Positions 1 through 46,026 are shown, counted from the stretch's first letter. The stretch is DNA of 63,645 nucleotides from Gammaproteobacteria bacterium (GCA_009843635.1 VYDB01000078.1:1-63645), one strand, 5' to 3'. Numbers and translations are program-made. Notes: a model not told the origin generated them from the letters alone.

Positions 1-116
1 TCCCCGGCAACGCAAACCCCGCCCAATCAGGGGCAGGGGGGCGAGTAGTTACGAGGTATTTTGCATTCCCCAAAACCCCCTCCAGATCGTCAAGCTGGAA
101 TAGGGCTGTTCCCCCG

Positions 117-1865
117 TTGATGATCGCAGGTTTCGCGGCCATTGTGATCTACATCGCCGCCGCGGCCGTCCTGCTCTATACGAACCCCCTTCTGTTTGCC
201 GACGACTGGCGCCACTACAACCACTATTTCTTCGAGAGAGATCTCATAAACGCCATCTTCGGACGAGAGAATCTGCATCTGATGATTTTGCCAAACATCA
301 TGTTTCTCTCGAATTACCTGTTTTTCGACGGTCGAATGAGCAATCTGGCGTTGATCAATGTCGGGTTGCTATCAACTTCGGCAGCCTTGGCGGCTTTCGC
401 TTGGCTGCGGGCAACTTGGAAGCCGGACAGGCATATGGCTGAAGTGGCCGGCGCGTTTCTGGTTTGGGCGGCCATTCTATTGTTTCTGGGTGCCCCACGA
501 ACGCTGTTTTGGGGTATCGGGGTCCACAACCATCTGGTCGTGCTCGGTGCGTTTGGCGCCGCGCTGTTCGCGTCGGGTCTCACTGGCTCCCTTCGGAAGC
601 CCATCAATTTTATCGGATTCATTGGTTTCGCGACAATCGCTTCGACGAGCTTTACTACCGGAAGTGCCGTTTGGATGCTGGGGTTTCTCGGCGCTGTCTT
701 AAATCGAGAGAGGCTCAGTACAACGCTGACCTTGCTAATTGTCGGGCTAGCAGGACTGATCACAACTGTCTGGCCAATGCTGAGTAAAGGAGTCGTAGCA
801 GACGCTGGGCTCAATGTGACTTCCCTACTCGTGTTCTGCGCATCTCTGTTCGGGAGTGCTTGGACCACTGTAGGGCCAGACCTGGCACAAGGGAACGAAC
901 TTCTGGTCTGTGCGGGCATAGGCGCCTTTGGAGTGCTAGTCATCATTTTGGCAGCAGTTCGCACATTGCTACGACCCGAGATCAGCGAGATGGATCGCCT
1001 CTATTGCTATTTCGTACTCATTGGTTCGTTCGTCGTTGCAGCCAGCCTGATGATTGGCTACGGTCGCATCGAGCTTGAGCACGGTCTGTGGGAAAGCCTC
1101 CGCCCTCGCTTCCACACTTGGTCGCTGTTGGGTTGGGCAAGCGTAGTTGGCGTGATGCTCGGAGCCGCTTACGAAGCAAGCCATAGGTTTAGAACGCACT
1201 GGCCACTCACCGCCTATGTTGTCTCGCTGCTTCTCTTGATCCTCCTTGGAAACCTAAACGTCATCAATTCCTCTCTCCGCCACACTTATTCATATTGGAT
1301 GGATACAGTGACGCAAGTTGCCGTGAATCACATCAACCGACCGACTGACAGACGACTTTGGAGAGACCGGGAGGACGTATGGCTAAGGGTCATTGATCAC
1401 CTTAGATCGCATAAACGCAACATCTATGCGGAGTCCTGGCCCCATCGAATGGGCCATGACATGTCAACAGTGCGGGATCAACTCAACAATCGATGCAACT
1501 CAGAGTTAGAAGTAATGCCAAGCAATAGGCACGATGAGTGGATTGTACGCGGCTGGATACTGCCGCAATCCAAGCACTCGGCACCCATAACCAACGTGTA
1601 CTTTCTAGACAAAAAAGGACAGACCATCGGTTTCTCGAAACCGATATTCGGCTCACAGCGCGGCGAAAACCAGCGGTATCGAGATCACATGATCTGGCCT
1701 GCTCGTTTGATGGATTCACTTGGCCTTCGAAGTGCCCGGGACATTCCCGGGGTTTCAGGCCACTTTTTGGGGCGCATCATTGCCGACGAGTCTAATGCCG
1801 ATCAAGTTCGCAGGCAGTTGCAGTTTGTGGCCGAGACCAAGTTTGGCTGGTCATGCACGGGATAG
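117..1865 (+). CDS. Polytopic integral membrane protein (582 aa). The N-terminal about 400 aa are rich in hydrophobic helices and the C-terminal about 180 aa are soluble. Function unknown, possibly polysaccharide assembly or modification given the neighbourhood
   Basis: Long ORF. The translation shows about 12 hydrophobic segments (e.g. AAIVIYIAAAAVLLY, LLFLGAPRTLFWGIGV, LLVFCASLFGSAW, GAFGVLVIILAAV). It lies first in a lower-GC cluster with sulfotransferase and glycosyltransferase genes. Confidence 0.5.
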   Translation: MMIAGFAAIVIYIAAAAVLLYTNPLLFADDWRHYNHYFFERDLINAIFGRENLHLMILPNIMFLSNYLFFDGRMSNLALINVGLLSTSAALAAFAWLRATWKPDRHMAEVAGAFLVWAAILLFLGAPRTLFWGIGVHNHLVVLGAFGAALFASGLTGSLRKPINFIGFIGFATIASTSFTTGSAVWMLGFLGAVLNRERLSTTLTLLIVGLAGLITTVWPMLSKGVVADAGLNVTSLLVFCASLFGSAWTTVGPDLAQGNELLVCAGIGAFGVLVIILAAVRTLLRPEISEMDRLYCYFVLIGSFVVAASLMIGYGRIELEHGLWESLRPRFHTWSLLGWASVVGVMLGAAYEASHRFRTHWPLTAYVVSLLLLILLGNLNVINSSLRHTYSYWMDTVTQVAVNHINRPTDRRLWRDREDVWLRVIDHLRSHKRNIYAESWPHRMGHDMSTVRDQLNNRCNSELEVMPSNRHDEWIVRGWILPQSKHSAPITNVYFLDKKGQTIGFSKPIFGSQRGENQRYRDHMIWPARLMDSLGLRSARDIPGVSGHFLGRIIADESNADQVRRQLQFVAETKFGWSCTG

Positions 1866-2374
1866 GCCGCACATTTTGGTCCAAGCCGCTATCCACCCTC
1901 AGCGCCAACCACACCTAGCCAGTCGCGGAGAACCGGCTTTACCGGCCCAACCATGGCCATGATGGCCCGCTACAGCCTGCAGTACTGAGGCCCCGATCCA
2001 GATCGCCGTTGCCGTTGAGATTCTCCCGCCGAGCGCCAGCGCATCCACCGACTGCCGGACAATGTCCCTAGCCGCGTGGATCCCAGGTGATGGCGGCGCC
2101 GATTCTCGCCCTCCGCCTCAGTGCGCTTCCTCTCGACAGCTATGAAGTGGGTGAAACTCGCGGCACCGCCTGGGCACGCCATAAACCCTGTTAGGACGTG
2201 GCTAACATGCGGAACTGGTCCAAGTGAGCGAGGGCTTGCGCCAGACACGGTCCCACCGGGCGAGACATGGGCCGCGATTGTTATGCTTGCTTCTCAACCT
2301 CGCGGGGAGGTATTCTAACCTCCCACAGAGGTGCTAACCTCTGTTCTCTCCCAATATTGCAACCGGCCCTCTCA

Positions 2375-3157
2375 ATGCACCTTCGCGATGACAAGTTCAT
2401 GGTTAGCTGCGCGGCGCGAAGCGGTAGCACCATGCTGTGTTCACTGATACGCTCCCACCCGCAAGCGATCTGCCACGGTGAAGTCCTTGCCCAGGAGCAG
2501 CCCCCTGTTTCCGGCATCTACGGACGCAAGCTCAAGGGCGATCCGGAGTTCGGCCGGCTCGTTCGCCAGTACCGAAACGAGCAACCGCAAAGGTTTCTCT
2601 ACGACATCGTCTTTGATCCGCAGGGGCACCGCTGCGTCGGATTCAAGTTCAAGACGGATGAGGCGTTTCAACCCCGTTTCAAAGCCATTCGAGAGGTCAT
2701 CTCCGCCGACAAGGACATCAAAATCATTCACTTGATCCGGCGCAACTTGATCGATCAGTACGTATCCCATCGAGTCGTCGAGCAGACAGGCTTGACGTTT
2801 CTGCGGCCATCCGACGACCGGCCACAGTTGGTGCCGTTCAGGGTGGATATCGATCACTTCATCGCCTATGTCACGGATTTGAAGGAAAGGCAGCAGGCAG
2901 CGCATGATCTCTATCGCGACCATCGAAGCTTGGTTCTCGCCTACGAAGACATTGTTGCTCCGCAGTCGTCCGCCCTAGACGACCTCCAGGCATTTCTGGG
3001 CATAGACAGACGCCCGCTTTCCACGCCACTGTTGAAGATCATCGGGAACAACAGCGAAATGGTTCTGAACCTAAAGGAGGTTCGGGCTGCGCTCGCGGGG
3101 AAGCAGTCAAGCACGCACAACGGCCAACAAGCCGAAGCGCGGTCGTTGGAAGTCTGA
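2375..3157 (+). CDS. Sulfotransferase family protein (Stf0/NodH-like PAPS-dependent). The ORF in the track is probably N-terminally over-extended; the start is likely at the MHLRDDKF Met or the nearby MVSCAARSGST Met
   Basis: 5'-PSB P-loop-like motif AARSGSTMLCSL near the N-terminus and a downstream LIRRNLIDQYVS (3'-PB-like R-x-N) motif. The ORF is 2267..3157. Confidence 0.65.
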   Translation: MHLRDDKFMVSCAARSGSTMLCSLIRSHPQAICHGEVLAQEQPPVSGIYGRKLKGDPEFGRLVRQYRNEQPQRFLYDIVFDPQGHRCVGFKFKTDEAFQPRFKAIREVISADKDIKIIHLIRRNLIDQYVSHRVVEQTGLTFLRPSDDRPQLVPFRVDIDHFIAYVTDLKERQQAAHDLYRDHRSLVLAYEDIVAPQSSALDDLQAFLGIDRRPLSTPLLKIIGNNSEMVLNLKEVRAALAGKQSSTHNGQQAEARSLEV

Positions 3158-3196
3158 CAAGCTCTGCGCAGTCAGGGCTCTAGAGCACCTCGCACG

Positions 3197-6100
3197 GTGG
3201 AAAAGGGGAATCCAGCCAAGGCGATCATTATCGCGGGCATGCACCGCAGCGGCACTTCAGCCCTCAGCCGAACGCTGAACCTAGTGGGTTGCGACGCGCC
3301 CAACACGTTGATGGGCGGCGACAACCGAGGCAACGAGCGCGGCCATTGGGAATCGCAACCCATATTCGAATTGAACAACGAGTTATTGGCCTCCGCAGGC
3401 TCGAGTTGGGAGGATTGGGAGGCCATCAACCCAAGCTGGTACGCGTCTCCGCTCTATCCCAAGTACTTCGAAAAGAGCCTTGAGGTCCTAACTGCCGAGT
3501 TCGGATCGAGCCCCCTGTTCGTGGTCAAGGATCCGCGCTTTTGCCGATTGATGGACTTTTGGACCAAAGTCATCGAGTCCTTCGGCGCCTCGCCGTTGGT
3601 CATCATGCCAATCCGAAATCCGCAAGACGTCGCTGCCTCTCTCAAGCACCGGGATGCGATTGATCCTTCCGTCGGCCGGTTGCTGTGGCTGAGGCACGTT
3701 CTGGAAGCTGAGGCAGGCAGTCGCGGCTACCCGCGAGTCACCGTTCGCTTCGACCAACTGCTGAACGATTGGCGCGGCCTCGTGACCCGCATCGGAGAGG
3801 CGCTTGAGGTGTCCTGGCCGAATATGTCGAGTGCTGCGGATATGGAAGTCGATGACTTTCTGACGCCCGATCTGCGCCACCATGCCGATCCGAGAGACGA
3901 CGTCGAGCCCAACACCCCAAGGATCCGCTGGATAGCCGAAACCTACGAAATATTGCAAAAGTGGTCGGCCGGCGAAGAGCGCAGTTCGGACCTCGCCAAG
4001 CTTGACGAGATCAGGTCGAACCTCAACGCCTTGGGGCCGCTCTTCGGCCGCCCTATCCTGCTCGGACGAAGGGCGATGCGTGACGCACGCGAGTTGAACG
4101 CAAAGCGGGAAGAACTGACCGATCTTCTCGATGCCGAAAGAACCAAGGTCAACGGTCTACAGGAAACACTTGCCCAGCGGCAGGCTGAAGTTGAGACCCT
4201 GCGCCAATCGATCGCCCAAAAGCAGGCCGAGGTCGAGTCCCTGCAACAGTCGAATGTCCAAGAGCTTGAGTCTTTACGGCGGTCGAACACTAAGGAGCTT
4301 GAGACCCTACAGCGGTCGAATGCCCGGGAACTCGAGACCCTGCACCAATCGATTGCCCACAAGGCCGAGGAAATCGCTCGCCAGGAGGCCCGCATTATCG
4401 ATCAGGACCAAGCGATCGGTGGCCACGTCCGCGAGCAAGCGTCGCTTAGCGACACCCTCGCCAACACGCGAGACCAAATTGACGCACTGATGTCGGCCGT
4501 CAACGAGCGGGAACGGAGAATCGCCACCTTGCTGCAGTCCTCAAGCTGGCGGTACACGGCCCCGCTGCGGAACACTAAGCTTGGCTTGGCTTGGCTTTTG
4601 CGCAAGGTCGTGCGCATAGCGCAAATCGGCGGCTGGTTGTGCACTGGCCAGTTTCGCAAGGCGGCGCACGCCGCCCTGCCGTTCTACCGCAGGCATGCCC
4701 CCCGATGGGTGGGAGCCCTGATTCCCCGTCGGCTTCGTCAATGGCTACGGGTCTCCACCTCTTCCCCGTCAAACGCCGTCCTGCAATCCTTGCAGCATCT
4801 GGACCAAGCGGACAGGTACGAACACACCCAGTTCGTACCCGAGTTCAGGGGCTCCCCCCCTGACTCGAACGGCGTGCGGCTCATCGCCTTCTACCTGCCT
4901 CAGTTCCACCCCATTCCAGAAAATGACGCTTGGTGGGGCGAAGGGTTTACGGAGTGGACCAACGTGCGCGCCGCAAAGCCGCTGTTTGCCGGACACTACC
5001 AGCCCCGGGTGCCCATAGACTCAGGCCATTACGACCTGCGCGACCCGGACGTTCAGCACCGCCAAGTGGATTTGGCCAAGCGCTACGGTGTGAGCGGCTT
5101 CTGCTTCTACTTCTACTGGTTCGCTGGCCACCGGCTGCTGGAGACTCCGCTACTCAACTACCTCAACGACCCCGCCATGGACCTGCCGTTCTGCCTCTGC
5201 TGGGCCAACGAGAACTGGACGCGGCGTTGGGACGGCAGGGAACAGGATCTGCTGATCGGCCAACGGCACTCGGAGAGCGACGACTTGCAATTCATCGAAT
5301 ACGTGTCGCTCTACCTCAACGATTCCAGATACATCCGTATCGACAACCGCCCCTTGCTTCTAGTCTATAAGCCGGACCTGTTTCCCGATGCGGCGGCCAC
5401 CGTCCGCCGGTGGCGCGAGTGGTGCAGAGAGCATGGGGTTGGCGAGCTCTACGTGGCCATGGTGCAGTCCTTGCAGGACTTGGATCCTAGGCCCTATGGC
5501 ATGGACGCAGCCATCGAGTTCCCGTGGCATACCGGACTGCCCAACGACATAACCACGCATGTGCTGCCTCCGGAAACCGGGTTCAGCGGCTACGTGTTTG
5601 ATTGGGATGACTACGCTGCCAAATGCCATGAGCAGCCCGATCGACCCTGGACCCAGGTCCGGGGCGTGATGCCGGGCTGGGACAACACCCCACGCCTGAA
5701 GTCAGCGGCGCACCTCTTCCAAGGCCACTCACCGGCAACCTACAGCAGGTGGCTGGTTTCCGCGATGCGCTGGACACTCGACCGAATGAGAAAGCCCGAG
5801 GAGCGGTTGGTGTTCATCAACGCCTGGAACGAATGGGGGGAAGGCGCCTATCTCGAGCCCGACCAGCGCTTCGGCTACGCGTTCCTGCAAGCGACTCGCG
5901 ACGCGGTCGAAGCGGTGGCGCGGCAACCAACTAACCCAGTACGTCCGCACCCGCTGTCCACCGGCGCCCAATCGTTAATCGTCAAGCAGGTCGTCCCGAT
6001 GGGCTCCAAGCAAACCGCCTCGGTCGCTGGCATTCGACTGAAATGCCCTGCGGAACCCGACATATCGGTCGTGATACCCGTCTATGGAGAGTGCCAATTG

Positions 6101-7990
6101 ACCCTGCGCTGCCTCAAGTCCCTGAGCGACTTGAGCGACCGGCGGTCATTCGAAGTCGTCCTAGTGGATGACGCCTCCGAGGACGAAAGCGCTGAGCGCC
6201 TGAGCGCAGTGCCCGGCATCCGCTATCTGCGCAATGACGAAAACCAAGGCTTTCTCAAGTCCTGCAACCGGGGCGCAGCTGTCGCTCAGGGCCGCTATCT
6301 CTTCCTGCTGAACAACGATACCGTCGTGGAGAACGGCGCTTTGGATGCGCTTGCGGATACTTTTGACGATCATGACAACGTTGGGCTGGTCGGCGCCAAA
6401 CTCTATTTCGAGGACGGGCGCCTGCAGGAGGCCGGAGGCATCGTTTGGTCGGACGGTTCCGCTATGAACTACGGCCGGGGAGACGACCCCCGCAAACCAG
6501 AGTACAACTACGTGCGCGACGCCGACTACTGCAGCGGCGCCGCAATCATGCTGCCAACCGTCTTGTGGCGTCGCCTGAACGGCTTCGACAGCTACTACGT
6601 GCGCGCCTACTATGAAGACACCGATCTCGCCCTCCGGGTTCGACAAGCAGGCCGCCGAGTACTCTACCAACCCTTCGCCAAGGTTGTGCACCGCGAGGGC
6701 GCCACGTCTGGCACCGACCTCTCCAAAGGCGAAAAACGCTATCAGGTGGAAAACCGCAAGCGATTTCTCGAGCGTTGGCGCGACAAGTTGGCCAGCGACC
6801 ACCCCGCCCCTACCACCCCGCCGCAACTCGCCAAGGACCGGGGCGCGGCTGCCCGAGCGCTGGTCATCGACTGGGACATTCCAACGCCTGACCACGACTC
6901 GGGCTCCCTAGACACCTTCAACCTCATCCGCATGCTGAACCACCTGGGGGTGAAGACAACCTTCGCCGCCCACCGCGACCTCGCCTACTTTGGCGAATAC
7001 ACGGACGCCGTGCAAAAACTCGGGGCGGAGGTGCTGTATGCACCTTACTGCAACTCACTACGCACCTTTCTTCAGGAACACGGAAAGGAACAAGACTACG
7101 TCATCGTCCATCGTGTTGGCGTTTTCAAGGAGGTTCAACCGGAGTTGAAGAGATTCTGCCCCCAAGCCCGCATCATCTTCAGCACCGTGGACCTACACCA
7201 CATCCGGGAGGCCCGCCAAGCTGAAGTGGAGAACTCCCAGCGCCTCAGAAAAAAAGCTGAGGCCACCAAACGGGACGAGATCAAGTTGGCCCGCAAGGCT
7301 GACGCCACGATCGTGGTGAGCAAAACCGAACAAGCCCTGCTTGAAGAGGCATTGCCCACCGTCCCAGTCTTTCACATGCCGCTCATTCGGGATGTGCCCG
7401 GATTGAGTGAGGCGGCTTTCGACAGCCGTCGCGGCATCGGTTTTTTGGGCAACTACCTCCACCCGCCGAATATGGACGCCGTTTTGCACTTCGTCCACGA
7501 CATCTGGCCCGAATTCCGCTCAGCAGTGCCACACGCGGAGTTGTACATTGGCGGCGGGCAGATGCCTTCCGAAGTAGCTCAGCTTAGCGATCTTGAGGGC
7601 GTACAAACGCTCGGCTACGTGCCGGACCTAGCGGCCTTCTACAATCGAATTCGGTTGACCGTCGCGCCGTTGCGCTACGGCGCCGGCGCCAAGGGCAAGG
7701 TGGTGTCTAGCCTCTGCCACGGGGTGCCGGTCGTCGCTTCGCCCATCGCGGCCGAAGGGATGGATGTGGCGCACGGGCGAGACATCCTCATTGCCGGCAA
7801 TCAGGCCGAGTGGATTGAGCACCTCGAAAGCGCCTACTGCGATCCAATCCTGTGGAGGGCGCTGTCGGAAGGCGGCACTGCGACCATGCAACGTAATCAC
7901 TCCCTCACCACAGGGGTGGTCGAGCTATCCCGCATCCTGGCGCTTGATGAAGTCGATTTTGGGCGCAAAGCAGCCCCGACGGCGCTGTAG
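3197..7990 (+). CDS. Giant multidomain glycan-modifying enzyme (1597 aa). It has an N-terminal sulfotransferase domain, a coiled-coil with tandem repeats, a WbsX-like glycosyltransferase domain, a GT2 (GT-A, D-x-D) domain and a C-terminal GT4/GT1-like (GT-B) domain
   Basis: Sulfotransferase motifs IIIAGMHRSGTSALS (5'-PSB) and PIRNPQDVAAS (3'-PB). Heptad-rich region LETLRQSIAQKQAEVESLQQSNVQELESLRRSNTKELETLQRSNARELETLHQS. WbsX-family signature FYLPQFHPIPENDAWWGEGFTEWTNV. GT2 signature ISVVIPVYGE...VVLVDDASEDE...NNDT. GT-B C-terminus GYVPDLAAFYNRIRLTVAPLRYGAGAKGKVVSSLCHGVPVVASPIAAEG. Confidence 0.85.
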   Translation: MEKGNPAKAIIIAGMHRSGTSALSRTLNLVGCDAPNTLMGGDNRGNERGHWESQPIFELNNELLASAGSSWEDWEAINPSWYASPLYPKYFEKSLEVLTAEFGSSPLFVVKDPRFCRLMDFWTKVIESFGASPLVIMPIRNPQDVAASLKHRDAIDPSVGRLLWLRHVLEAEAGSRGYPRVTVRFDQLLNDWRGLVTRIGEALEVSWPNMSSAADMEVDDFLTPDLRHHADPRDDVEPNTPRIRWIAETYEILQKWSAGEERSSDLAKLDEIRSNLNALGPLFGRPILLGRRAMRDARELNAKREELTDLLDAERTKVNGLQETLAQRQAEVETLRQSIAQKQAEVESLQQSNVQELESLRRSNTKELETLQRSNARELETLHQSIAHKAEEIARQEARIIDQDQAIGGHVREQASLSDTLANTRDQIDALMSAVNERERRIATLLQSSSWRYTAPLRNTKLGLAWLLRKVVRIAQIGGWLCTGQFRKAAHAALPFYRRHAPRWVGALIPRRLRQWLRVSTSSPSNAVLQSLQHLDQADRYEHTQFVPEFRGSPPDSNGVRLIAFYLPQFHPIPENDAWWGEGFTEWTNVRAAKPLFAGHYQPRVPIDSGHYDLRDPDVQHRQVDLAKRYGVSGFCFYFYWFAGHRLLETPLLNYLNDPAMDLPFCLCWANENWTRRWDGREQDLLIGQRHSESDDLQFIEYVSLYLNDSRYIRIDNRPLLLVYKPDLFPDAAATVRRWREWCREHGVGELYVAMVQSLQDLDPRPYGMDAAIEFPWHTGLPNDITTHVLPPETGFSGYVFDWDDYAAKCHEQPDRPWTQVRGVMPGWDNTPRLKSAAHLFQGHSPATYSRWLVSAMRWTLDRMRKPEERLVFINAWNEWGEGAYLEPDQRFGYAFLQATRDAVEAVARQPTNPVRPHPLSTGAQSLIVKQVVPMGSKQTASVAGIRLKCPAEPDISVVIPVYGECQLTLRCLKSLSDLSDRRSFEVVLVDDASEDESAERLSAVPGIRYLRNDENQGFLKSCNRGAAVAQGRYLFLLNNDTVVENGALDALADTFDDHDNVGLVGAKLYFEDGRLQEAGGIVWSDGSAMNYGRGDDPRKPEYNYVRDADYCSGAAIMLPTVLWRRLNGFDSYYVRAYYEDTDLALRVRQAGRRVLYQPFAKVVHREGATSGTDLSKGEKRYQVENRKRFLERWRDKLASDHPAPTTPPQLAKDRGAAARALVIDWDIPTPDHDSGSLDTFNLIRMLNHLGVKTTFAAHRDLAYFGEYTDAVQKLGAEVLYAPYCNSLRTFLQEHGKEQDYVIVHRVGVFKEVQPELKRFCPQARIIFSTVDLHHIREARQAEVENSQRLRKKAEATKRDEIKLARKADATIVVSKTEQALLEEALPTVPVFHMPLIRDVPGLSEAAFDSRRGIGFLGNYLHPPNMDAVLHFVHDIWPEFRSAVPHAELYIGGGQMPSEVAQLSDLEGVQTLGYVPDLAAFYNRIRLTVAPLRYGAGAKGKVVSSLCHGVPVVASPIAAEGMDVAHGRDILIAGNQAEWIEHLESAYCDPILWRALSEGGTATMQRNHSLTTGVVELSRILALDEVDFGRKAAPTAL
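4150..4400 (+). repeat. Intragenic tandem repeats of about 33 nt (11 aa) that encode the coiled-coil segment of the multidomain enzyme
   Basis: Repeated DNA units ...gag(t/a)c(c/t)ct(g/a)c(a/g)(a/g)cggtcgaa... translate to LESLRRSNTKE / LETLQRSNARE / LESLQQSNVQE. Confidence 0.6.
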
Positions 7991-8005
7991 TCCTGCCCCT
8001 GCCTG

Positions 8006-8908
8006 ATGAACAACAAAGTTGCGCCCCGGCTTGGCACCGCAATTTCCAAGCTCCGCCAAAGCCCAGGTTCTCGAGGCTCGCGGGACCAGCGGAAGATCGT
8101 TCTTCACTACCATCTCTTCAAGAACGCCGGAACCAGCATCGACCAAATTCTGAAGAATAACTTTGGCGAGCAGCGGTGGCGCAACCAAGAATTTCCATCG
8201 GGCGGCGGCACCTTGGCGATCCTCAAAGGCAATTCGTGCTCGAACGCAGTTGAGGATTGGCTGCGCACAAACCCCGACGTGCAGGTTCTTTCTTCCCACA
8301 CCGCCGTAATGCCACTCCCCAACATCCCCGCCACCACTGTTTTCCCGATTCTGTTTGTGCGCCATCCGTTGACCCGACTGCAATCAGCCTATTTCTTCCA
8401 ACGCCATCGATTCCACGCTGGCATTGACAAGATGGCAACTCGATTGGCAGCCCAAAGCGACTTCGCTGGGTACGTGAGCGGCCTGATGGCCCGGCAGAAC
8501 AACAGCATGGCGCGCAACTTCACCGCCGTTCGACTGGCAGCAGCTGTACCCGGCCCCACGAACCAACTCGAACAGCGCGCCCTTAGTGCCCTGAACACCC
8601 TGCCATTCGTCGGATCGGTCGAACGGTTCAACCAATCACTAAGCGTGATGGAGCACTGGCTGCGACCGCACTTTCCCGGCTTCCGCGCCGACCCTGTCTG
8701 GCGCAATGCCACCCAAGGCCAGCCGCGCTCAATGTCAGACCGACTTGACCAGATTCTCGACGATCTTGGCCCTCGGCTCTACGAACAAGCATTGCAAGTG
8801 AATGAGGCTGATCTGTTGGTCCACAAAGCAGCTATGGCAAGAATTGAGGCGCTATACGACGCGCTTTCAGCGACGACTAGCCAAGGGGATCAAGGAGCCA
8901 GAAACTGA
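8006..8908 (+). CDS. Sulfotransferase family protein (carbohydrate-sulfotransferase-like, Sulfotransfer_2/3 type)
   Basis: N-terminal H-x-x-K-x-G-T-S motif (HYHLFKNAGTSIDQIL). This resembles the PAPS 5'-phosphosulfate-binding loop of HNK-1 and heparan carbohydrate sulfotransferases. It lies 16 nt downstream of the multidomain enzyme on the same strand. Confidence 0.55.
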   Translation: MNNKVAPRLGTAISKLRQSPGSRGSRDQRKIVLHYHLFKNAGTSIDQILKNNFGEQRWRNQEFPSGGGTLAILKGNSCSNAVEDWLRTNPDVQVLSSHTAVMPLPNIPATTVFPILFVRHPLTRLQSAYFFQRHRFHAGIDKMATRLAAQSDFAGYVSGLMARQNNSMARNFTAVRLAAAVPGPTNQLEQRALSALNTLPFVGSVERFNQSLSVMEHWLRPHFPGFRADPVWRNATQGQPRSMSDRLDQILDDLGPRLYEQALQVNEADLLVHKAAMARIEALYDALSATTSQGDQGARN

Positions 8909-9023
8909 TGCAGTAGCGCACCGGGCAATCGACGCCCCTCCCATACAGATCCTCAAAGCGCACAACAAAGCGGTTTCCGAAGAATGAACCGGGTCGCCTC
9001 CCGTGACACCCGGCAGGAATGAA

Positions 9024-9053
9024 CCGGGGCGAACGGCAATCCGTTCGCCCCGG
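9024..9053. terminator. Bidirectional intrinsic terminator hairpin between convergent genes
   Basis: Perfect 13-bp inverted repeat ccggggcgaacgg-caat-ccgttcgccccgg. It lies between the + strand sulfotransferase (end 8908) and the - strand SPFH gene (end 9072). Confidence 0.55.
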
Positions 9054-9071
9054 TCTCAAGGCCGCCCGAGC

Positions 9072-10208
9072 TCAGGCTTTCAGGCGAACCAGTTCGTTGA
9101 GTACGCCGTCAAGGCCGCCGTACACGGAGAGACTGCCGACTTTCTCGGTGATCTTCTCCAGCGTCTCCAGTTCCTTCAGGCGCAGCGCCACCGCATTGCT
9201 CTCCATGACCTTGGCCGTGTTGAGCAGCGAGCGGGTCGCATTCGTTTCCTCGCGACGCCGGATTACGTTGGCCTGGGCGGCTTTTTCGGCCTCGACCACC
9301 TTGCCGAGCAGCAACTTCATGTCGCCCGGCAGGATGATGTCCTTCACGCCGACGCCCTCGACCGCGATGCCGATGCCGGCGAACCGGTCCACGACCCGCT
9401 CGGCAACCGCCCGGTCGATGGCTGCCTTGTCCTCCAGCAGCGCATCCAAGGTGCGCGTTCCCACCGCGGCGCGCAGGCCGAACTGGATCTCCTTGTACAG
9501 GTGATCGAGCGGATCCTTCGCCGCACGCACCGCCTTTTCCGCGTCAACATAGCGGTAGGTGGCGGTGAGGTTCACGCGCAGGCTGACCTTGTCGCGAGTC
9601 AGGATTTCCTGGCCCTGAACCTCCAGCGTCTTCACGCGCAGATCCATGACGTCAACCCTGACGCTCGGGCCGCAGTTCCAGAACGCATGCAGGCCGGACT
9701 CGAGCGTACCGGTCAACCTGCCCTCGACATACAGCAGCCCGACATGTCCGTCCGGAACCTCCTGCGAATACAGGGGCCGCCGGCCCAAGCCGAACAGGGT
9801 GTCGAGCGGCCGAAGGCGCTTGGCGAGCTGACCATCGAGTTCGAGACCCTCATCAAGGTCGAACCGCTCAACCCGCGTGGACACCGGACCCTTCCAGTAC
9901 AGGCGACGTTCCGTCGGCGCCACGATCTCGGCTGCCCGCTCGTTGTGATAGACGACCGCCACCTCATTGGCGCCGGTTTCCACCAAGGTGAACAGTTGCT
10001 CGACGATTTCGCGTTGGGCCTCCACCAGGTAATCGACCAGCCGATGCTCGAACAGCGGACTGGCGAGGTCGAAGGTCTCCACCGCGTAGCGCGAGCGCAG
10101 CCCATGGAATCGATAGGTCCCCGGTTCGAGGAACTGGAGGAAGTCTCCGTCCCTGAACAGGAGCCCGCGTTCGTGCTTCAGCACGATGAACTTCTGAGAA
10201 AACAACAT
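9072..10208 (-). CDS. SPFH/band-7 domain protein (stomatin/prohibitin/flotillin superfamily)
   Basis: Translation FIVLKHERGLLFRDGDFLQFLEPGTYRF ... VKTLEVQGQEILTRDKVSLRVNLTATYRYVD ... C-terminal coiled-coil EAEKAAQANVIRRREETNATRSLLNTAKVME. The start is likely at MLFSQKF (ORF extends to 10286). The + strand ORF 9003..10523 is its shadow. Confidence 0.8.
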   Translation of the reverse strand: MLFSQKFIVLKHERGLLFRDGDFLQFLEPGTYRFHGLRSRYAVETFDLASPLFEHRLVDYLVEAQREIVEQLFTLVETGANEVAVVYHNERAAEIVAPTERRLYWKGPVSTRVERFDLDEGLELDGQLAKRLRPLDTLFGLGRRPLYSQEVPDGHVGLLYVEGRLTGTLESGLHAFWNCGPSVRVDVMDLRVKTLEVQGQEILTRDKVSLRVNLTATYRYVDAEKAVRAAKDPLDHLYKEIQFGLRAAVGTRTLDALLEDKAAIDRAVAERVVDRFAGIGIAVEGVGVKDIILPGDMKLLLGKVVEAEKAAQANVIRRREETNATRSLLNTAKVMESNAVALRLKELETLEKITEKVGSLSVYGGLDGVLNELVRLKA

Positions 10209-10589
10209 GTCGCGTTCTCCTTGCCCTTGTTGCCTGCGAATTCGGTCTTCCGCAAGTTGGTAATGCGCCCGTTCCCACAACCGCACGGCGGACCGGCGGT
10301 GCCGGCCGTTCGAACGATCCGCGCACCGGCGCCGGATGATCCCCCGCTCCCGAAAGAGCCGGAGACCCGTGCGACGCCGGCGGGCGATACGCCGGACCGA
10401 CCAGCGCGTCGACCGGGCTTAAGCCCGACCAGCCTCCACCTGCCGGCAATGCGATTGCCGCTCTGCCGAACCCGCCGCTTGCGCGGCCAGCCGCGGCAGC
10501 GCCGGGAACGGGCGCCCATGTGACGCATAGCGCTCGTCACCAGCGTTTTGCACGGTTATCAGCCGTGTAGACCTCTTTGAAGGAAGTCT

Positions 10590-10666
10590 GTGTTGGAATG
10601 CCGGACTCGAACCAGCAACCACCAGTTCCCAGACTGGAGCTCTACCCTATTGAGCTAATTCCCTGC
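10590..10666 (-). tRNA. tRNA-like element, apparently degenerate (Trp/Pro-like cloverleaf with defects). Possible pseudo-tRNA or integration remnant
   Basis: The reverse complement reads AGGGAAT-TA-GCTCAATAGGGTAGAGC-T-CCAGT-CTGGGA-ACTGG-TGGTT-GCTGG-TTCGAGT-CCGGC-ATTCCAA-CA. The D-arm and the T-arm (GGTTCGAGTCC) are canonical. The anticodon loop is only 6 nt, and acceptor positions 1-2/71-72 are A·A mismatches. Confidence 0.45.
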
Positions 10667-10855
10667 ACAGGCCGGGTGCATACAAACCGCTCGATACACA
10701 CCGTGCGATGGGTAGCGTTGGTGCGCCGGGCGGGACTCAATGAACCCGCACCTCAAGAACGCCATACGCCGCCCAGCCTTTCTTTGGACGAAGCAACGTT
10801 CCTCGCCCTTTGCCCCACCCCGGCCACCGGGTGGCGCCTCACCTTTCTTCAGCGC

Positions 10856-10888
10856 AAAAAAAACCCTGGGCGGCAGGCCGACCAGGGC
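10856..10888 (-). terminator. Rho-independent terminator on the minus strand
   Basis: Minus-strand reading gives ccctggtcggcctgccgcccaggg (about 10-bp stem) followed by a 9-T run. On the + strand this is aaaaaaaaa-ccctgggcggcaggccgaccaggg. Confidence 0.5.
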
Positions 10889-11227
10889 TTTCTTGTGCCT
10901 GGAAGGCCAATTCGCGTTGCCTTCCAGGTCCATTGTGGAAGGTCAACGCATTGCCGGCTCGCCGCTACGGACGGATTGGCGGGCAAATCCGCAACACCAA
11001 ATCGAATCGAGCGCCAACGCCCCGCGGCCGCTTTCGCAGGGGCACGGGAGGCGTTCGATCAACGCAGATTTCGCTCTTGTCCGGATCACCGGGTTTTTCC
11101 TCGCAACGCAATCTTCAAAACAGTGGGCGCGGCATTCTATGGATGCTTGGCCGCTTGTCAAACACTTTTTTTTCACCGCTTCGCCTAGCGCCCAGTCATA
11201 CTGCCCTGAAGGCCCACCTCTCCCGAG

Positions 11228-12643
11228 CTAGCGCGGTCCCCGCCCGTACTGGTCATCAAAGCGGACGATGTCATCCTCGCCAAGATAGTCACCCACCTGA
11301 ACCTCAATGAGCTCAAGGGTCCGATCCGCCGGATTGCGCAGGCGGTGCTTCGTGCCCTGGGGGATGTACGTACTCTGGTTTTCGGATAGCGAGAACGTGT
11401 CTTCACCGCATGTGACTTCGGCCACGCCCCGCACCACCACCCAGTGCTCGGCGCGGTGGTGATGCAACTGCAGCGACAAGCTGGCGCCCGGCTTCACCTT
11501 GATGCGCTTGACTTGATAGCGTTCGCCATGCCCAACACCTTCGTAGCTGCCCCAAGGACGAAACACCTCAGTGTGCAGGCTGTGCTCTGAGCGGCCGGAA
11601 TCACGCAACTGCGTCACCAGGGCACCCACGTCCTGAACCCGGCTTCGATCAGCGACCAACACCGCGTCGGCGGTCTCCACGACAACCAAGTGATTGACGC
11701 CGATGGCGCCCACCAAGCGATGGCTCGAATAGACGAAGGTGCGGTCCACATCCAAGGGCAGCACGTCGCCAACGAAGTGGTTGCCGCGCCCATCCGCCCC
11801 GGCAGTCTCCAGCACCGCCTCCCAAGAGCCGATGTCGCTCCACCCGAAGTCCACCGGCAGCACCGCGGCGCGGGCTGTTCGTTCCATCACCGCGACATCG
11901 AATGAGACGTTGGGGCTGCGCAGAAACGCATCGTTCAGGCGAAAGAAGTCGAGGTCCGATTGGCCCTTCTCAACCGATTCGGCAACGGCTGCCGCCATTT
12001 CGGGGCTGTGCGCCTCGATCTCCGCCAAGGCAACTTCCGCATCGACCAGGAACATGCCGCTGTTCCAGAGATGGCGGCCAGAGGCCACGAAAGCGCGGGC
12101 GCGCTCAGCATCAGGTTTTTCGACGAAGGCCTGAACCGGCTGAACGCCCGGCTGGCCGGCAACCGCCAGCTCAATGTAGCCATAGCCCGTTTCCACACGG
12201 GACGGCACGATGCCGAACGTCACCACCGCGCCGCCCTCGCTCGCCTCCTGGGCGGCCTGGACCGCCGCGGCAAAGCCCTCGGCGTCCTCGACCTGGTGGT
12301 CGGCGGGCAGCACCAGCAACTGCGCACCGGCAGCATCGGCCATGGCCAGATGGGCGGCCAGCGCAATGGCTGGCGCGGTGTTGCGGCCCTCTGGCTCCAA
12401 GGCGATGCACTGCCAAGGCAACTCCAGCGCTCGGAGCTGTTCAGCGACCAGAAAGCGGTTGGCCTCATTGCAGACGACAATCGGCGGTCGGCTGGTGACC
12501 CGCGCCGCCCGCAACGCGGTGCTCTGCAGCAGGGAGCGCTCGCCGAACAAGGCATGAAAGGGCTTGGGGAACAGCGCCCTCGACAGCGGCCATAGACGGC
12601 TGCCAACGCCGCCGGCCAACACCACCGGAATGAGGGGTTTCAA
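11228..12643 (-). CDS. manC: Mannose-1-phosphate guanylyltransferase / mannose-6-phosphate isomerase (bifunctional type II PMI-GMP, AlgA/XanB/ManC family)
   Basis: N-terminal nucleotidyltransferase motif MKPLIPVVLAGGVGSRLWPLSR. C-terminal cupin with QLHHHRAEHWVVVRGVAEVT. 471 aa. Confidence 0.9.
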   Translation of the reverse strand: MKPLIPVVLAGGVGSRLWPLSRALFPKPFHALFGERSLLQSTALRAARVTSRPPIVVCNEANRFLVAEQLRALELPWQCIALEPEGRNTAPAIALAAHLAMADAAGAQLLVLPADHQVEDAEGFAAAVQAAQEASEGGAVVTFGIVPSRVETGYGYIELAVAGQPGVQPVQAFVEKPDAERARAFVASGRHLWNSGMFLVDAEVALAEIEAHSPEMAAAVAESVEKGQSDLDFFRLNDAFLRSPNVSFDVAVMERTARAAVLPVDFGWSDIGSWEAVLETAGADGRGNHFVGDVLPLDVDRTFVYSSHRLVGAIGVNHLVVVETADAVLVADRSRVQDVGALVTQLRDSGRSEHSLHTEVFRPWGSYEGVGHGERYQVKRIKVKPGASLSLQLHHHRAEHWVVVRGVAEVTCGEDTFSLSENQSTYIPQGTKHRLRNPADRTLELIEVQVGDYLGEDDIVRFDDQYGRGPR

Positions 12644-23500: not shown

Positions 23501-26170
23501 ATGCCAGTCACCCGACCCTCCGAGCAGCCAATCGACGACGAATGGCGGCTTGAGCAGCAGGAGTGGTTCGAAGCCTTGGACGACGTGCTTGAAAACCGTG
23601 GCGAGGAGGAGACCCGCGCCCTGCTGCTCGGTCTTCAGCAACGCTTGAGCCGCCAGGGCGTCGTGTTGACTGAAGCGGCTCTGAACACGCCCTACAAGAA
23701 CACCATCGACCTAAAGGACCAGCCCGAATATCCCGGCGACATCGAGCTCGAGACGCGCATCGGCAACGTGATCCGTTGGAACGCGGTGGCCATGGTGCTG
23801 CAGGCCTTCGACAGCGGCTCCGGGGTGGGCGGACACATCGCCACCTACCTGTCCGCAGCGACCATGATGGAGGTGGGCTTGAACCACGTGTTCCACGTCG
23901 GCACCGAGCCAGGCGACGGCGACCAGGTGCACTTCCAAGCCCACACCTCGCCCGGCATCTACGCCAGAGCCTTCCTGGAAGGACGCCTGAGCGAAACCCA
24001 GCTCGCCAACTTCCGCCGCGAACTTGGCCAGGGCGGCGGCCTGCCGTCCTATCCCCATCCCCGGCGCCTGCCTTGGTTCTGGACCATGCCCACCGCCAGC
24101 ATGGGCCTGTCCACCCCCTGCGCCATCTACCAGGCGCGGTTCGCCAAGTACTTGGAGAGCCGGGGCCTCAAGAAGTCCGGGGACGGTAAGATCTGGGCCT
24201 TCATCGGCGACGGCGAGGCCGATGAGCCGGAAGTGCTCGGCACCATCAACATCGCCAGCCGAGAGGAGCTCGACAACCTGGTGCTGGTGGTCAACTGCAA
24301 CTTGCAGCGCCTCGACGGACCGGTGCGCGGCAACGGCAAGATCATCCAGGAGCTGGAGCGCTCCTTCCGGGGCGCGGATTGGCATGTCATCAAGGTCATC
24401 TGGGGCGGCGGTTGGGACCCGATCCTGGCCCGCGACCACCACGGCGTGCTGCAGGCGCGCATGGAGCAGGCGGTCGATGGCGACTACCAGATGTACACCG
24501 TCTCTCCCGGCGACGCCGTGCGCGAGCACTGGGTGGAGCACACGCCGGAACTGCGCGAATTGATGAAGACCCTCACCGATGAGGAAGTTCGCTCCATTCA
24601 GCGCGGCGGCCAGGACCACCGCAAGATCTACGCCGCCTTCCGCCAAGCCGCCGAGGTGCGCGGCAAGCCTTGCGTGGTGCTGCTGAAGACGGTTAAAGGC
24701 GATGGCTTAGGTCCCGGCGCCGAGGGCGCCAACACCGTGCATCAGAAGAAGTACCTATCCCCCGACGAACGCCGGGAACTGGCCAAGCGCTTCGACATTC
24801 CCCTGTCCGATGAGGACGTTCTGCGCGCCGCCTTCTACCACCCGGCGGAAGACTCCCGGGAGATGCGCTACCTGCGGGCGCGGCGCGAGGCGCTCGGCGG
24901 CTTCATGCCCAGCCGGGAGGTGCGTTGCGAGCGCCTAGAGGCACCCGATCTCGACCTGTTCGCTGACCTCCTTAAAGGGTCGCAGCGAGAGGCTTCCACC
25001 ACCATGGTGGTGGTGCGGATGCTCTCCCGCCTGCTGCGCGACAAACGCCTCGGCCGCTACATCGTGCCCATCGTGCCCGATGAGGCGCGCACCTTCGGCA
25101 TGGACGGCCTGTTTCCCCAAGCCGGCATCTACTCGCCGGAGGGGCAGCGCTACCAGCCGGTCGATTTCGGCACCATCGCTCCCTACAAGGAGTCGGAGGA
25201 CGGCCAGATTCTCCAAGAGGGCATCTGTGAGACCGGCGCCATGGCCTCCTTCCTAGCCGCCGGCACCGCCTACGCCAACTACGGCCTGCCGATGATTCCG
25301 TTCTACATCTTCTATTCCATCTTCGGCTTTCAACGAGTCGGCGACATGATCTGGGCCTGCGGCGACATGATGTGCAAGGGCTTTCTGCTCGGCGGCACCT
25401 CCGGGCGCACCACCTTGAACGGCGAAGGGGTGCAGCACCAGGACGGCCACTCGCAACTGATCGCCAGCACGGTGCCCAACCTCAAGAGCTTCGACCCGGC
25501 CTTCGCCTACGAGATTGCGCTGATCGTGCGCGACGGCATCCGCGCCATGTACCAGGAGCGGCAAGACATCTTCTACTACATCACCCTGACCAACCAAGCC
25601 TACCCGATGCCACCGATGCCGGAAGGCATAGAGGAGGGCGTGCTGCAGGGCATGTACTGCTTCGACCGCGCCGAAGGGGCGACGGTAAACCTGTTCGGCA
25701 GCGGTGCGGTGATGACCGAGGTGCTGCGGGCCCGGGACCTGCTCAGCGCCGACGGCGTGCGCAGCAACGTCTGGAGCGTCACCAGCTACAACGAGCTGGC
25801 GCGCCAAGCCCGGCACGTGGAGCGCCAGCAGATGCTGCGCCTCGGCGGCACCGAGGAGAAGCCCTACGTGCAAGTGCTGCTCGAAGGCGAGAGCGGCGTC
25901 TTCATCGCCGCTTCGGACTACATGAAGGCGCTGCCGGGCATGATCGCGCCTTGGATTCCCGGCGCCTACACCGTGCTCGGCACTGACGGCTTCGGCCTGT
26001 CCGAGGCCCGCGACCGGCTCCGGGACTACTTCGAGGTCTCTGGGGAGTGGATTGCCTTCGCGGCGCTCTCCACGCTGGCCCAGAGCAACTTGGCGCCCGG
26101 GCAAGCCGCCTTGGACTTCGCCAAACGGCACGCGCTGAACCTCGATCAGGCCGACCCCGTTTGGGCCTGA
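23501..26170 (+). CDS. aceE: Pyruvate dehydrogenase E1 component (homodimeric type)
   Basis: 889 aa. The N-terminus DDEWRLEQQEWFEALDDVLENRGEEETRALLLGLQQRL and the thiamine-diphosphate-binding region GDGEADEPE match AceE. Confidence 0.95.
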   Translation: MPVTRPSEQPIDDEWRLEQQEWFEALDDVLENRGEEETRALLLGLQQRLSRQGVVLTEAALNTPYKNTIDLKDQPEYPGDIELETRIGNVIRWNAVAMVLQAFDSGSGVGGHIATYLSAATMMEVGLNHVFHVGTEPGDGDQVHFQAHTSPGIYARAFLEGRLSETQLANFRRELGQGGGLPSYPHPRRLPWFWTMPTASMGLSTPCAIYQARFAKYLESRGLKKSGDGKIWAFIGDGEADEPEVLGTINIASREELDNLVLVVNCNLQRLDGPVRGNGKIIQELERSFRGADWHVIKVIWGGGWDPILARDHHGVLQARMEQAVDGDYQMYTVSPGDAVREHWVEHTPELRELMKTLTDEEVRSIQRGGQDHRKIYAAFRQAAEVRGKPCVVLLKTVKGDGLGPGAEGANTVHQKKYLSPDERRELAKRFDIPLSDEDVLRAAFYHPAEDSREMRYLRARREALGGFMPSREVRCERLEAPDLDLFADLLKGSQREASTTMVVVRMLSRLLRDKRLGRYIVPIVPDEARTFGMDGLFPQAGIYSPEGQRYQPVDFGTIAPYKESEDGQILQEGICETGAMASFLAAGTAYANYGLPMIPFYIFYSIFGFQRVGDMIWACGDMMCKGFLLGGTSGRTTLNGEGVQHQDGHSQLIASTVPNLKSFDPAFAYEIALIVRDGIRAMYQERQDIFYYITLTNQAYPMPPMPEGIEEGVLQGMYCFDRAEGATVNLFGSGAVMTEVLRARDLLSADGVRSNVWSVTSYNELARQARHVERQQMLRLGGTEEKPYVQVLLEGESGVFIAASDYMKALPGMIAPWIPGAYTVLGTDGFGLSEARDRLRDYFEVSGEWIAFAALSTLAQSNLAPGQAALDFAKRHALNLDQADPVWA

Positions 26171-44596: not shown

Positions 44597-44613
44597 GGAT
44601 CAATACTTCCAGG

Positions 44614-45872: not shown

Positions 45873-46026
45873 GCGGATAGCCTCATTAGGGAAGACTCAC
45901 AACCCCGCGCAGCGACAGGCTCGACCGTCAACGGTGCGGCAGCGACCCTTCTGAAATCCCAGGGCGCTGCATCCCAATAGCCGCTCTCTTCGGCCTCCCG
46001 AACCGGAACTTTGAGCCTCACTTCAC

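Follow-up and report, generated by a model that had tools for sequence, protein, structure and literature searches.

We analysed a stretch of 63,645 nucleotides from an assembly labelled Gammaproteobacteria bacterium (GCA_009843635.1 VYDB01000078.1:1-63645), which is called the window below at its full length, and describe a group of genes at its left end that is a candidate locus for a sulfated glycan. On the plus strand, an incomplete gene (1..1865, its 3' part) for a GtrA-fused membrane protein is followed by the gene for a stand-alone sulfotransferase, ST_A (2375..3157), by the gene for a 1597-aa multidomain protein that we propose to be a polymerase-terminator (3197..7990), whose N-terminal domain, ST_N, has a sulfotransferase fold, and by the gene for a third sulfotransferase, ST_C (8006..8908). 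The minus strand carries manC at 11228..12643 (TIGR01479, 618 bits), which encodes a bifunctional mannose-1-phosphate guanylyltransferase / mannose-6-phosphate isomerase for GDP-mannose supply. The coordinates of these open reading frames (ORFs) in an initial annotation, made from the sequence alone, agree with ours, as does its placement of manC near the cluster. Loci of relatives and of other assemblies are labelled L001-L091.

Scans with Pfam and NCBIfam models give the 1597-aa protein the order ST_N, coiled coil, basic linker, WbsX, GT2 and GT4 (the last two being glycosyltransferase families), which is identical in 20 full-length homologues at 63-81% identity. ST_N (aa 1-262; 3197..3982), the candidate chain-capping enzyme, scores 27.2 bits against Pfam Sulfotransfer_3 over residues 10-208 (cut-off 27). 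Its AlphaFold2 model, built from a 30-sequence alignment, has most of residues 11-220 at a predicted local distance difference test score (pLDDT) of 86-98, and all 11 Foldseek matches of this model in PDB at E<=1e-3 are sulfotransferases dependent on 3'-phosphoadenosine-5'-phosphosulfate (PAPS). Tyrosylprotein sulfotransferase (TPST), the sulfotransferase domains of OLS and CurM, and heparan sulfate 3-O-sulfotransferases are among the best of them, with top matches to 8w5z (2.4e-6), 4gox (1.5e-5) and 3ap3 (1.9e-5). In 30 homologues of 25-73% identity, the residues H16-R17-S18-G19-T20-S21, E52, K111, R140 and S148 are invariant; the first six form the 5'-phosphosulfate-binding (5'-PSB) motif, and R140...S148 the 3'-phosphate-binding (3'-PB) motif. 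It should be added that ST_N-type domains of cultured bacteria stay under the Sulfotransfer_3 cut-off (22.9 and 20.4 bits, and no score for Massilia; the domains below the cut-off belong to L074 9998..11443, L021 9998..11473 and L024 10001..12142), and routine annotation therefore misses most of the family.

Between ST_N and the catalytic modules lies an alpha-helical spacer of ~185 residues, predicted to be a coiled coil (aa 263-447; 3983..4537), in which AlphaFold2 places helices at 263-396 and 410-447 and which gives weak SMC-type matches over aa 295-445. The initial annotation was silent on this spacer, in our view the most informative feature, which sets the sulfotransferase apart from the polymerase modules in the layout known from WbbB and WbdD. 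It is the least conserved part of the protein (58% identity to the homologue in L007, versus 80-87% for the catalytic domains); its length is 89-1024 aa among the best 120 homologues (median 262) and 193-298 aa in close homologues, varying by ~100 aa between close relatives. Its coding region contains a 33-bp (11-codon) tandem repeat in ~3-4 copies (4235..4358; Tandem Repeats Finder, 69-78% matches), and changes in the copy number of this repeat would change the length of the helix. The basic linker that follows (aa 448-545; 4538..4831) is conserved and modelled at low to moderate AlphaFold2 confidence; it begins with SSSWRxTxPLR, where 20 homologues all agree in S448, S449, S450, W451, R452, T454, P456, L457 and R458, and is possibly a region of membrane association or recruitment.

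The remainder of the protein consists of glycosyltransferase modules, and the initial annotation had recognised such domains correctly. A Glyco_tran_WbsX (GH99-like) module occupies aa 562-900 (4880..5896; PF14307, 441.5 bits). The GT2 module, of GT-A fold, covers aa 954-1170 (6056..6706; Glycos_transf_2, 85 bits; Glyco_tranf_2_3, 52 bits) and matches the GT2 domains of chondroitin synthase and ppGalNAc-T in PDB by sequence. The C-terminal GT4-type (GT-B) module extends over aa 1211-1597 (6827..7990), with 65 bits for Glyco_trans_1_4 at aa 1412-1547 and 105 bits for TIGR03087 at aa 1340-1582, the latter below that model's cut-off of 316.65 bits.

ST_A is a NodH/LpsS-like sulfotransferase of 260 aa, the reading frame of which is open from 2267, while the gene callers choose 2375. 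It scores 30.1-30.6 bits against Sulfotransfer_3 (cut-off 27) and 23-23.6 bits against Stf0 (cut-off 22). A profile of 30 diverse family members, each of which (30/30) matches Sulfotransfer_3, retrieves 9vki from PDB, described as 'LPS sulfotransferase NodH', at E=5e-16 over ~200 residues, near the full length. The invariant residues are R15, G17 and S18 in the 5'-PSB loop and R122...S131 in the 3'-PB motif, and the family comprises 2970 representative clusters at E<=1e-3.

ST_C (300 aa) belongs to the Sulfotransfer_2 family (PF03567, 26.7 bits, cut-off 22), and its homologues are named 'sulfotransferase family 2 domain-containing protein' in the source records. The AlphaFold2 model (pLDDT 89) has its best PDB match in 4ndz, a heparan sulfate 2-O-sulfotransferase (E=1.1e-4, probability 1.0), and a search of PDB with the ST_C profile gave nothing, so that the fold match came through structure prediction. 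The residues H34, Y35, H36, F38, K39, N40, A41, G42, S44, R119 and S127 are invariant in 30 homologues; they make up HYHxFKNAGxS, with K39-N40-A41-G42-x-S44 as the 5'-PSB motif (T43 standing between G42 and S44), and R119...S127 as the 3'-PB motif. The carbohydrate-sulfotransferase-like loop noticed initially in ST_C is thus borne out. Genes similar to ST_C also stand beside ST_N-bearing proteins in distant phyla (L028, Nitrospiraceae; L056).

Single-sequence searches of PDB with ST_A, ST_N and ST_C returned nothing significant. Both PAPS-binding motifs are nevertheless invariant in the homologues of all three down to 25-40% identity, and the top Foldseek matches of the ST_N and ST_C models are sulfotransferases with PAP bound. 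All three PAPS-sulfotransferase signatures of the initial annotation therefore stand where it had located them, upheld by Pfam, by profile or fold matches and by invariant motifs, and none of the ORFs was reassigned to an unrelated P-loop family. A fourth sulfotransferase-like ORF, of 308 aa as listed, lies apart at 26047..26973 (+), with 26.9 bits for Sulfotransfer_3 (cut-off 27) and a GC content of 0.68 that equals the core genome; because it begins within the end of a pyruvate dehydrogenase E1 gene, its true start is probably later.

The first gene of the cluster is cut by the start of the contig, and the ORF at 117..1865 is only the portion after an in-frame TTG. The '12-TM protein' of 582 aa described initially is really the 3' part, ~606 of 737 codons, of a gene that is complete in three other assemblies (L001-L003), where its product carries an N-terminal Pfam GtrA_DPMS_TM domain. 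A tblastn search with the 737-aa protein of L001 matched the window at 45..1862 with 99% identity, and an exact-protein look-up of the ORF gave no match because the ORF is truncated. The full protein has ~13 hydrophobic segments and a soluble C-terminal domain of ~200 aa; beyond the GtrA domain there is a transmembrane (TM) segment at 156-174 and then ~9 further hydrophobic segments. The large membrane domain, which is putatively a GT-C-type periplasmic glycosyltransferase, matched no Pfam or NCBIfam family, and homologues of the fused protein number only 12 among 5.8e9 proteins; PF04138 (the GtrA family of small membrane proteins, or flippases) is found on the 737-aa protein and on nine of its homologues. 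The motif P-L-F-x-D-D-W-R-H-Y (D184-D185, within PLLFxDDWRHY) is invariant in the 12 homologues and lies just after the large domain's first TM segment (156-174). The acidic catalytic residues of GT-C enzymes occupy the position right after the first helix.

Upstream of the window start, L001-L003 contain a gene for a protein of 193-256 aa, with a methyltransferase-like glycine-rich motif visible by eye and no Pfam match, and a gtrB-like gene (L001 697..1650) that encodes a 317-aa GT2 protein (Glycos_transf_2, 108.7 bits) with two C-terminal hydrophobic segments near aa 234-262 and 270-292. Together, the GT2 protein and the GtrA-fused polytopic protein look like a Gtr/Gml-type three-component module that would add sugars in the periplasm.

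Only 40 bp separate ST_A from the 1597-aa gene, and 16 bp separate the latter from ST_C. Because of these gaps, we suggest that the three genes form one operon; a scan of 1700..9200 for promoters and terminators gave a number of sites no higher than chance. The GC content of the four locus genes is 0.54-0.61, compared to 0.63-0.69 in most flanking genes, and their GC content at third codon positions (GC3) is 0.61, 0.71, 0.75 and 0.65, compared to 0.78-0.89 in nearly all flanking genes. Thus, the lower GC that had been claimed for the cluster is seen in the profile along the window as well as gene by gene. Downstream of ST_C, on the opposite strand, an SPFH gene and a small ORF precede manC. 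The interval 9072..11188 between ST_C and manC is filled by the SPFH/Band_7 gene (9072..10208, minus strand) and the ORF of 196 aa, without an assigned function. The SPFH gene was considered as a member of the locus and rejected, since it is missing from that position in L007, L009 and L090; for the same reason it looks, with the 196-aa ORF, like a local insertion.

The window agrees in every base with the first 18.9 kb of scaffold_22 of the ENA assembly ERZ23491947 (213,671 bp; L004), and scaffold and window begin at the same base. Further copies of the locus come from a contig of 1.36 Mb (ERZ25069412 ctg853833; L001), a second metagenome scaffold (L002) and the NCBI metagenome assembly GCA_009842035.1, likewise labelled 'Gammaproteobacteria bacterium' (L003). 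The nearest GTDB species representatives are metagenome-assembled genomes labelled Pseudomonadales (L009, 70% identity; L010, 66%). The record names point to a study of marine sponges by metagenomics, and the bacterium, which is uncultured, is probably associated with a sponge.

Gene content at this site differs between relatives. In L007, where the large protein has 79% identity, the order is methyltransferase-like, gtrB, gtrA-membrane, ST_A, large gene, ST_C and manC; the ST_A homologue is apparently frameshifted, being present at 8214..8934 as two overlapping pieces in different frames with a called gene of 177 aa, which suggests a pseudogene. L089 (65%) has an ST_C-like gene, ST_A, the large gene, another ST_C-like gene and manC, with a rearranged GtrA-methyltransferase/GT2 set beyond; L009 (70%) has ST_A, the large gene, two methyltransferase genes and manC; and the circular 3.93-Mb genome L090 (ERZ25067984 ctg17508; 63%) has the large gene, one methyltransferase gene and manC. 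From these gene orders, the large gene beside manC is the core of the locus, and the sulfotransferases and the gtr module are variable accessories. In all four relatives manC adjoins the large gene or its accessory genes, making it a conserved right-hand neighbour. Together with the lower GC3, this variation in gene content fits a serotype-like surface-glycan locus. The horizontal acquisition that the initial annotation had proposed is in keeping with these observations, since content differs at a single site and composition is distinct, and a locus of the lipopolysaccharide (LPS) core syntenic in all relatives is ruled out by the differing contents. A further homologue of the 1597-aa protein, in the 2.97-Mb genome L091 (6014..24376), is accompanied by neither manC nor accessory sulfotransferases and lies amid transposases (Transposase_31, DDE_3 and DDE_Tnp_1).

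The architecture of the large protein is widespread. All of its best 120 homologues (120/120) have an N-terminal ST_N-like domain, then a spacer, then glycosyltransferase modules in differing combinations of WbsX, GT2, GT4 or RgpF; some relatives, of 1964 aa, end in an additional methyltransferase, and in L009 and L090 this enzyme has a gene to itself. An ST_N domain in line with glycosyltransferase modules is encoded in 26 of 80 related GTDB loci from many phyla, including Pseudomonas, Massilia, Dyella, Rhodanobacter, Paracoccus, Mangrovicella, a Solemya gill symbiont, Acidobacteriota, Nitrospiraceae, Chloroflexi and a cyanobacterium. The statement of the initial annotation that the combination appears undescribed was therefore too strong, the more so because clusters for sulfated capsules that combine sulfotransferases with ABC transporters have already been published from Cobetia and Vibrio (PMC11766843, PMC11641403). 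Judged by sequence, our locus belongs to a large family of sulfotransferase-tipped polymerases, and we found no experimental characterisation of that family in the searchable literature. The same chassis of coiled coil and WbsX also occurs with an N-terminal class-I S-adenosylmethionine (SAM) methyltransferase in place of ST_N (L025, L032, L038, L050 and L065), in Undibacterium, Thiothrix, Xanthomonas melonis, Caulobacter and Modicisalibacter.

Transporter genes accompany several members of this family. The gene wzt lies 157-1370 bp from the ST_N-bearing gene in 10 loci (L013, L021, L022, L024, L030, L055, L066, L074, L079 and L084), and it stands directly alongside the architecture in the cultured bacteria Massilia eburnea JCM 31587, Dyella flava DHOC52, Paracoccus shanxieyensis DK398 and Mangrovicella endophytica 5T4P-12-1, which makes the hypothesis set out below directly testable. 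L008, whose gtr module has 52-68% identity to ours, is a complete locus of the type exported by an ATP-binding cassette (ABC) transporter and has four sulfotransferase domains, in the order wzm, wzt, sulfotransferase, sulfotransferase, ST_N-glycosyltransferase protein, sulfotransferase, methyltransferase-like, gtrB and gtrA-membrane. Wzm/Wzt are encoded with the system in the distant carriers L008, L013, L021, L024, L055, L074, L079 and L084, whereas no linked pair was found here. Of 12 ST_N-linked Wzt proteins, six, all of them from the 10 loci named above, have a C-terminal extension of 170-190 aa, the size of a carbohydrate-binding module (CBM).

In the biosynthesis of O-polysaccharides exported by ABC transporters, the enzyme that adds the cap and the polymerase lie at opposite ends of a coiled coil, the length of the coil sets the length of the chain, and the cap is often recognised by a CBM on Wzt (PMC11231755, PMC3482155). 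[quoted passage not shown] The 1597-aa protein has the corresponding features, that is, a predicted extended coiled coil and a non-polymerase domain distal to the glycosyltransferases (aa 1-262, versus from aa 562 onwards), and because the order ST_N, helix, glycosyltransferases matches that of WbbB and ORF6, we read it as terminator, ruler and polymerase. This reading is supported by the chassis relatives, in which a methyltransferase, an established cap chemistry, holds the position of ST_N, and the ABC route is supported by wzt near ST_N genes in the 10 loci and by the complete locus L008.

We propose the following model. The region would be the right-hand part of a variable surface-glycan locus beside manC. 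On the cytoplasmic side of the inner membrane, the WbsX-like, GT2 and GT4 modules of the 1597-aa protein would build a polyprenol-linked glycan, for at least some of which the probable donor is GDP-mannose supplied by the neighbouring ManC. When the chain has reached a sufficient length, ST_N, ~185 helical residues away, would most likely sulfate its non-reducing end and thereby cap it and set its length, just as WbbB does with its Kdo-transferase and WbdD with its kinase/methyltransferase. ST_A and ST_C would add more sulfate, probably at in-chain positions or on side branches. Export would probably be through a Wzm/Wzt ABC transporter encoded elsewhere in the genome, after which the Gtr-like module of GT2 synthase and GtrA-fused protein may add a side-branch sugar in the periplasm. 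A glycan locus with a capacity for sulfation, as the core of this model, we regard as clearly probable; the 'sulfated-glycan locus' suggested initially holds as to a glycan locus with three sulfotransferase folds, two of which are nearest to carbohydrate enzymes (NodH/LpsS and heparan sulfate 2-O-sulfotransferase), and its sulfate transfer is deduced. The model in its entirety, from variable locus and three-module polymerase to cap, additional sulfation, Gtr branch and ABC export, is in our estimate evenly poised between right and wrong. The assignment of ST_N as chain cap is somewhat weaker, a serious possibility to which we incline slightly less than to its contrary, and about sulfate as a chain cap we are, overall, similarly tentative.

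Several observations weigh against the model. The Pfam scores of ST_A, ST_N and ST_C all lie near their thresholds, and independent support was therefore sought in profiles, models and motifs. No Wzt homologue is encoded in the 63.6-kb window, and no wzm/wzt genes are found within 10 kb of the locus (<=10 kb) in L007, L009, L089 and L090; L001 was covered for ~5 kb upstream and ~11 kb downstream of the large gene. The ORFs of the window that were scanned include no gene for PAPS synthesis (cysC, cysDN). As neither PAPS-supply genes nor an exporter were found in the sequence covered, actual sulfation is something that we infer. Among the linked Wzt proteins, those of L008, L021, L022, L030, L054 and L066 are short and have no extension of CBM size, and thus cap-dependent export is not general for ST_N proteins. 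The tails of Wzt group by type of terminator, yet the nucleotide-binding domains group likewise, so that the grouping may reflect shared operon ancestry rather than specificity; co-variation of the tails with the terminator was consequently downgraded as support. Within the sulfotransferase type, the tails of L013 and L024 are just 30% identical. In Aeromonas salmonicida, a gene with a sulfotransferase domain lies between wzt and wbbB, and no sulfate has been reported in the O-antigen (PMC4483657); either this warns that such domains may leave the polymer unsulfated, or it hints at a terminal sulfate that goes unnoticed in bulk analysis. Finally, the searchable literature documents no sulfate-capped bacterial glycan, nor did we find in it a paper in which a molecular ruler, or recognition by a Wzt CBM, is connected with a bacterial sulfotransferase. 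The 2019 terminator census of Mann, Kimber and Whitfield (Glycobiology 29:822) reportedly included predicted new chemistries, and may already list a sulfotransferase type.

Some of these observations would be explained if the glycan is sulfated but ST_N modifies it within the chain during synthesis, the helix serving only for oligomerisation or as a scaffold. Half of the ST_N-linked Wzt proteins have no CBM-size extension, the Wzt of the closest complete analogue, L008, is short, the clade of L007, L009, L089 and L090 has no linked transporter, and the sulfate of known bacterial sulfated polysaccharides is in-chain (PMC11766843, PMC11641403). On the other hand, ~185 helical residues (~25 nm when extended) are a poor placement for an enzyme that acts along with synthesis, two stand-alone sulfotransferases are already at hand for in-chain sulfation, the spacer varies widely in length, as a ruler would, and methyltransferases hold the same N-terminal position in related proteins, beside long Wzt. 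We consider in-chain action of ST_N unlikely, but to be reckoned with. Much less credible, at a low probability, is a target other than a polysaccharide, be it a protein tyrosine, as for RaxST and TPST, a lipid or a metabolite, or a role of ST_N as a kinase-like protein or a non-catalytic nucleotide binder. It is true that ST_N is structurally most similar to tyrosylprotein sulfotransferases and the OLS/CurM sulfotransferase domains, not to carbohydrate enzymes, that its TM-scores are modest (0.39-0.50 on the target), and that kinase-fold matches to PFKFB3 appear at E ~1e-3. However, every ST_N homologue is covalently fused to glycosyltransferase modules (three here), both PAPS motifs are invariant, including the 3'-phosphate-binding R140...S148, which kinases lack, ST_A is nearest to NodH, which acts on LPS or lipochitooligosaccharide, and ST_C to heparan sulfate 2-O-sulfotransferase, and the neighbours are the glycan genes manC and the gtr module.

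Other doubts concern the kind of locus. Published clusters for sulfated polysaccharides also join sulfotransferases with glycosyltransferases (PMC11766843, PMC11641403), and the locus might thus serve a capsule of Kps type (group 2/3) or a sulfated exopolysaccharide that depends on Wzx/Wzy, comparable to those of Cobetia or to cyanobacterial synechan (xss). No typical Pfam domain of KpsMT, KpsSC, KpsDE, Wzx, Wzy or Wza-Wzc was found among the genes of L001-L003 or the scanned ORFs of the window, the search for the Kps genes covering kpsM/kpsT, kpsS/kpsC and kpsD/kpsE; moreover, a cytoplasmic polymerase that combines several modules and a coiled coil is characteristic of Wzm/Wzt systems (PMC11231755), and relatives link the architecture to wzm/wzt. 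We regard such a capsule or exopolysaccharide as improbable. The shared site of the large gene and manC in several relatives could also mean that we see a common LPS-core or housekeeping envelope locus, conserved and without peculiarities of composition or mobility. We hold that to be highly improbable: GC3 is 0.61-0.75 versus 0.78-0.89 in most flanking genes, accessory content differs in each relative examined, the homologue of L091 lies amid transposases, and there are no core-oligosaccharide (waa) genes among the scanned ORFs of the window or the genes of L001-L003.

Two other low-GC stretches of the window, at 34.7-49 kb and 52-56 kb, were examined as possible extensions of the island but set aside, as they contain restriction-modification and AAA-TPR genes. 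The stretch 34729..49197 (GC 0.51-0.60) is a restriction-modification island unrelated to the glycan locus. Its methylases are a type II C5 enzyme (PADLOC, 391 bits), an Eco57I-like N6 enzyme and a type III Mod-like enzyme (1249 bits); it also contains two ORFs without assignment and the genes for a 760-aa HATPase_c_3 protein with weak matches to type II restriction enzymes, a DUF1828/PDC-M24B protein and a ResIII helicase of 1056 aa. At 52226..56289 (+; GC 0.55-0.57), there are genes for a 389-aa protein without a family match and a 978-aa AAA_16 and TPR (STAND-like) protein, neither of which has a match in PADLOC. Further to the right, a gene for an MttB-family methyltransferase (61316..62866, plus strand; 375 bits) adjoins one for formate-tetrahydrofolate ligase (59402..61105, minus strand; 700 bits), a pair that suggests demethylation of methylated amines feeding one-carbon metabolism.

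Capping is a central idea of chain-length control in the assembly of bacterial polysaccharides, and a sulfate cap, if true, would add a new chemistry to it and explain the sulfotransferase-like domains in many O-antigen loci, for example the wb cluster of A. salmonicida (PMC4483657). A heavily sulfated surface glycan could mimic sulfated glycans of the host, and, as a matter of speculation, a multiply sulfated glycan encoded at a variable, exchangeable locus would bear on recognition between host and symbiont. That sulfate is a hitherto uncharacterised chain-terminating chemistry for glycans of the ABC type, placed on the non-reducing end by the widespread sulfotransferase-tipped family as a whole, with the helical spacer as its ruler, and that ST_A, ST_C and the gtr module make the polymer of this organism a heavily sulfated, host-mimicking surface glycan, is the boldest form of the proposal, and we hold it only tentatively, doubting it more than we believe it.

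The closest known counterparts of the large protein are WbbB of Raoultella terrigena and K. pneumoniae O12 and ORF6 of K. pneumoniae O7 (PMC11231755, PMC9587256), which have a cap enzyme, a coiled coil and glycosyltransferases in the same order within one polypeptide; architectures homologous to the one described here also adjoin wzt, in some cases with a CBM-size extension. The differences are that the N-terminus has the fold of a PAPS-type sulfotransferase, instead of a GT99 Kdo transferase or a methyltransferase-kinase, that the glycosyltransferase modules number three, one of them WbsX-like, and that no linked wzm/wzt was found, the capping role itself being a proposed analogy. WbdD of Escherichia coli O9a and K. 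pneumoniae O3 (PMC3482155) likewise has its cap domain at the far end of a coiled coil, the length of which sets the length of the chain, and its polymer is a mannan made from GDP-mannose, manC being adjacent here too. In contrast to our protein, WbdD lacks polymerase modules and recruits WbdA, and its cap is methyl-phosphate, compared to the sulfate proposed here.

Among sulfotransferases, ST_A resembles the rhizobial NodH/LpsS enzymes (9vki), including the RxGS P-loop and the R...S motif of the 3'-PB site, although single-sequence similarity is marginal (E=0.16) and its context is a polymerase operon rather than a nod or LPS-core setting. ST_C shares with heparan sulfate 2-O-sulfotransferase the fold (4ndz, TM-score ~0.48) and the loop of HxxKxGxS type; it differs in having 13-14% identity and in being bacterial and cytoplasmic, without a membrane anchor, and only its N-terminal third is reached by the Sulfotransfer_2 model of Pfam. 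The gtr module is similar to Gtr/GmlABC systems (PMC11127046; gml of K. pneumoniae O2, cited in PMC11231755) in its GT2 polyprenyl-phosphate sugar synthase with two C-terminal TM segments, its GtrA-family domain and its large polytopic protein with an invariant DD after the first TM segment, whereas the fusion of GtrA to the polytopic protein, and a membrane domain outside known families with 12 detectable homologues, set it apart. At the level of the whole locus, the capsule clusters of Cobetia marina KMM 1449 (PMC11766843) and Vibrio sp. KMM 8419 (PMC11641403) are comparable, being marine and having sulfotransferases clustered with glycosyltransferases and GDP-mannose genes. The Cobetia cluster also uses an ABC transporter route, but of the Kps type (kpsMTED, kpsSC), with cysNC, cysD and cysQ inside the cluster, none of which was found here; and as described, it lists no coiled-coil polymerase.

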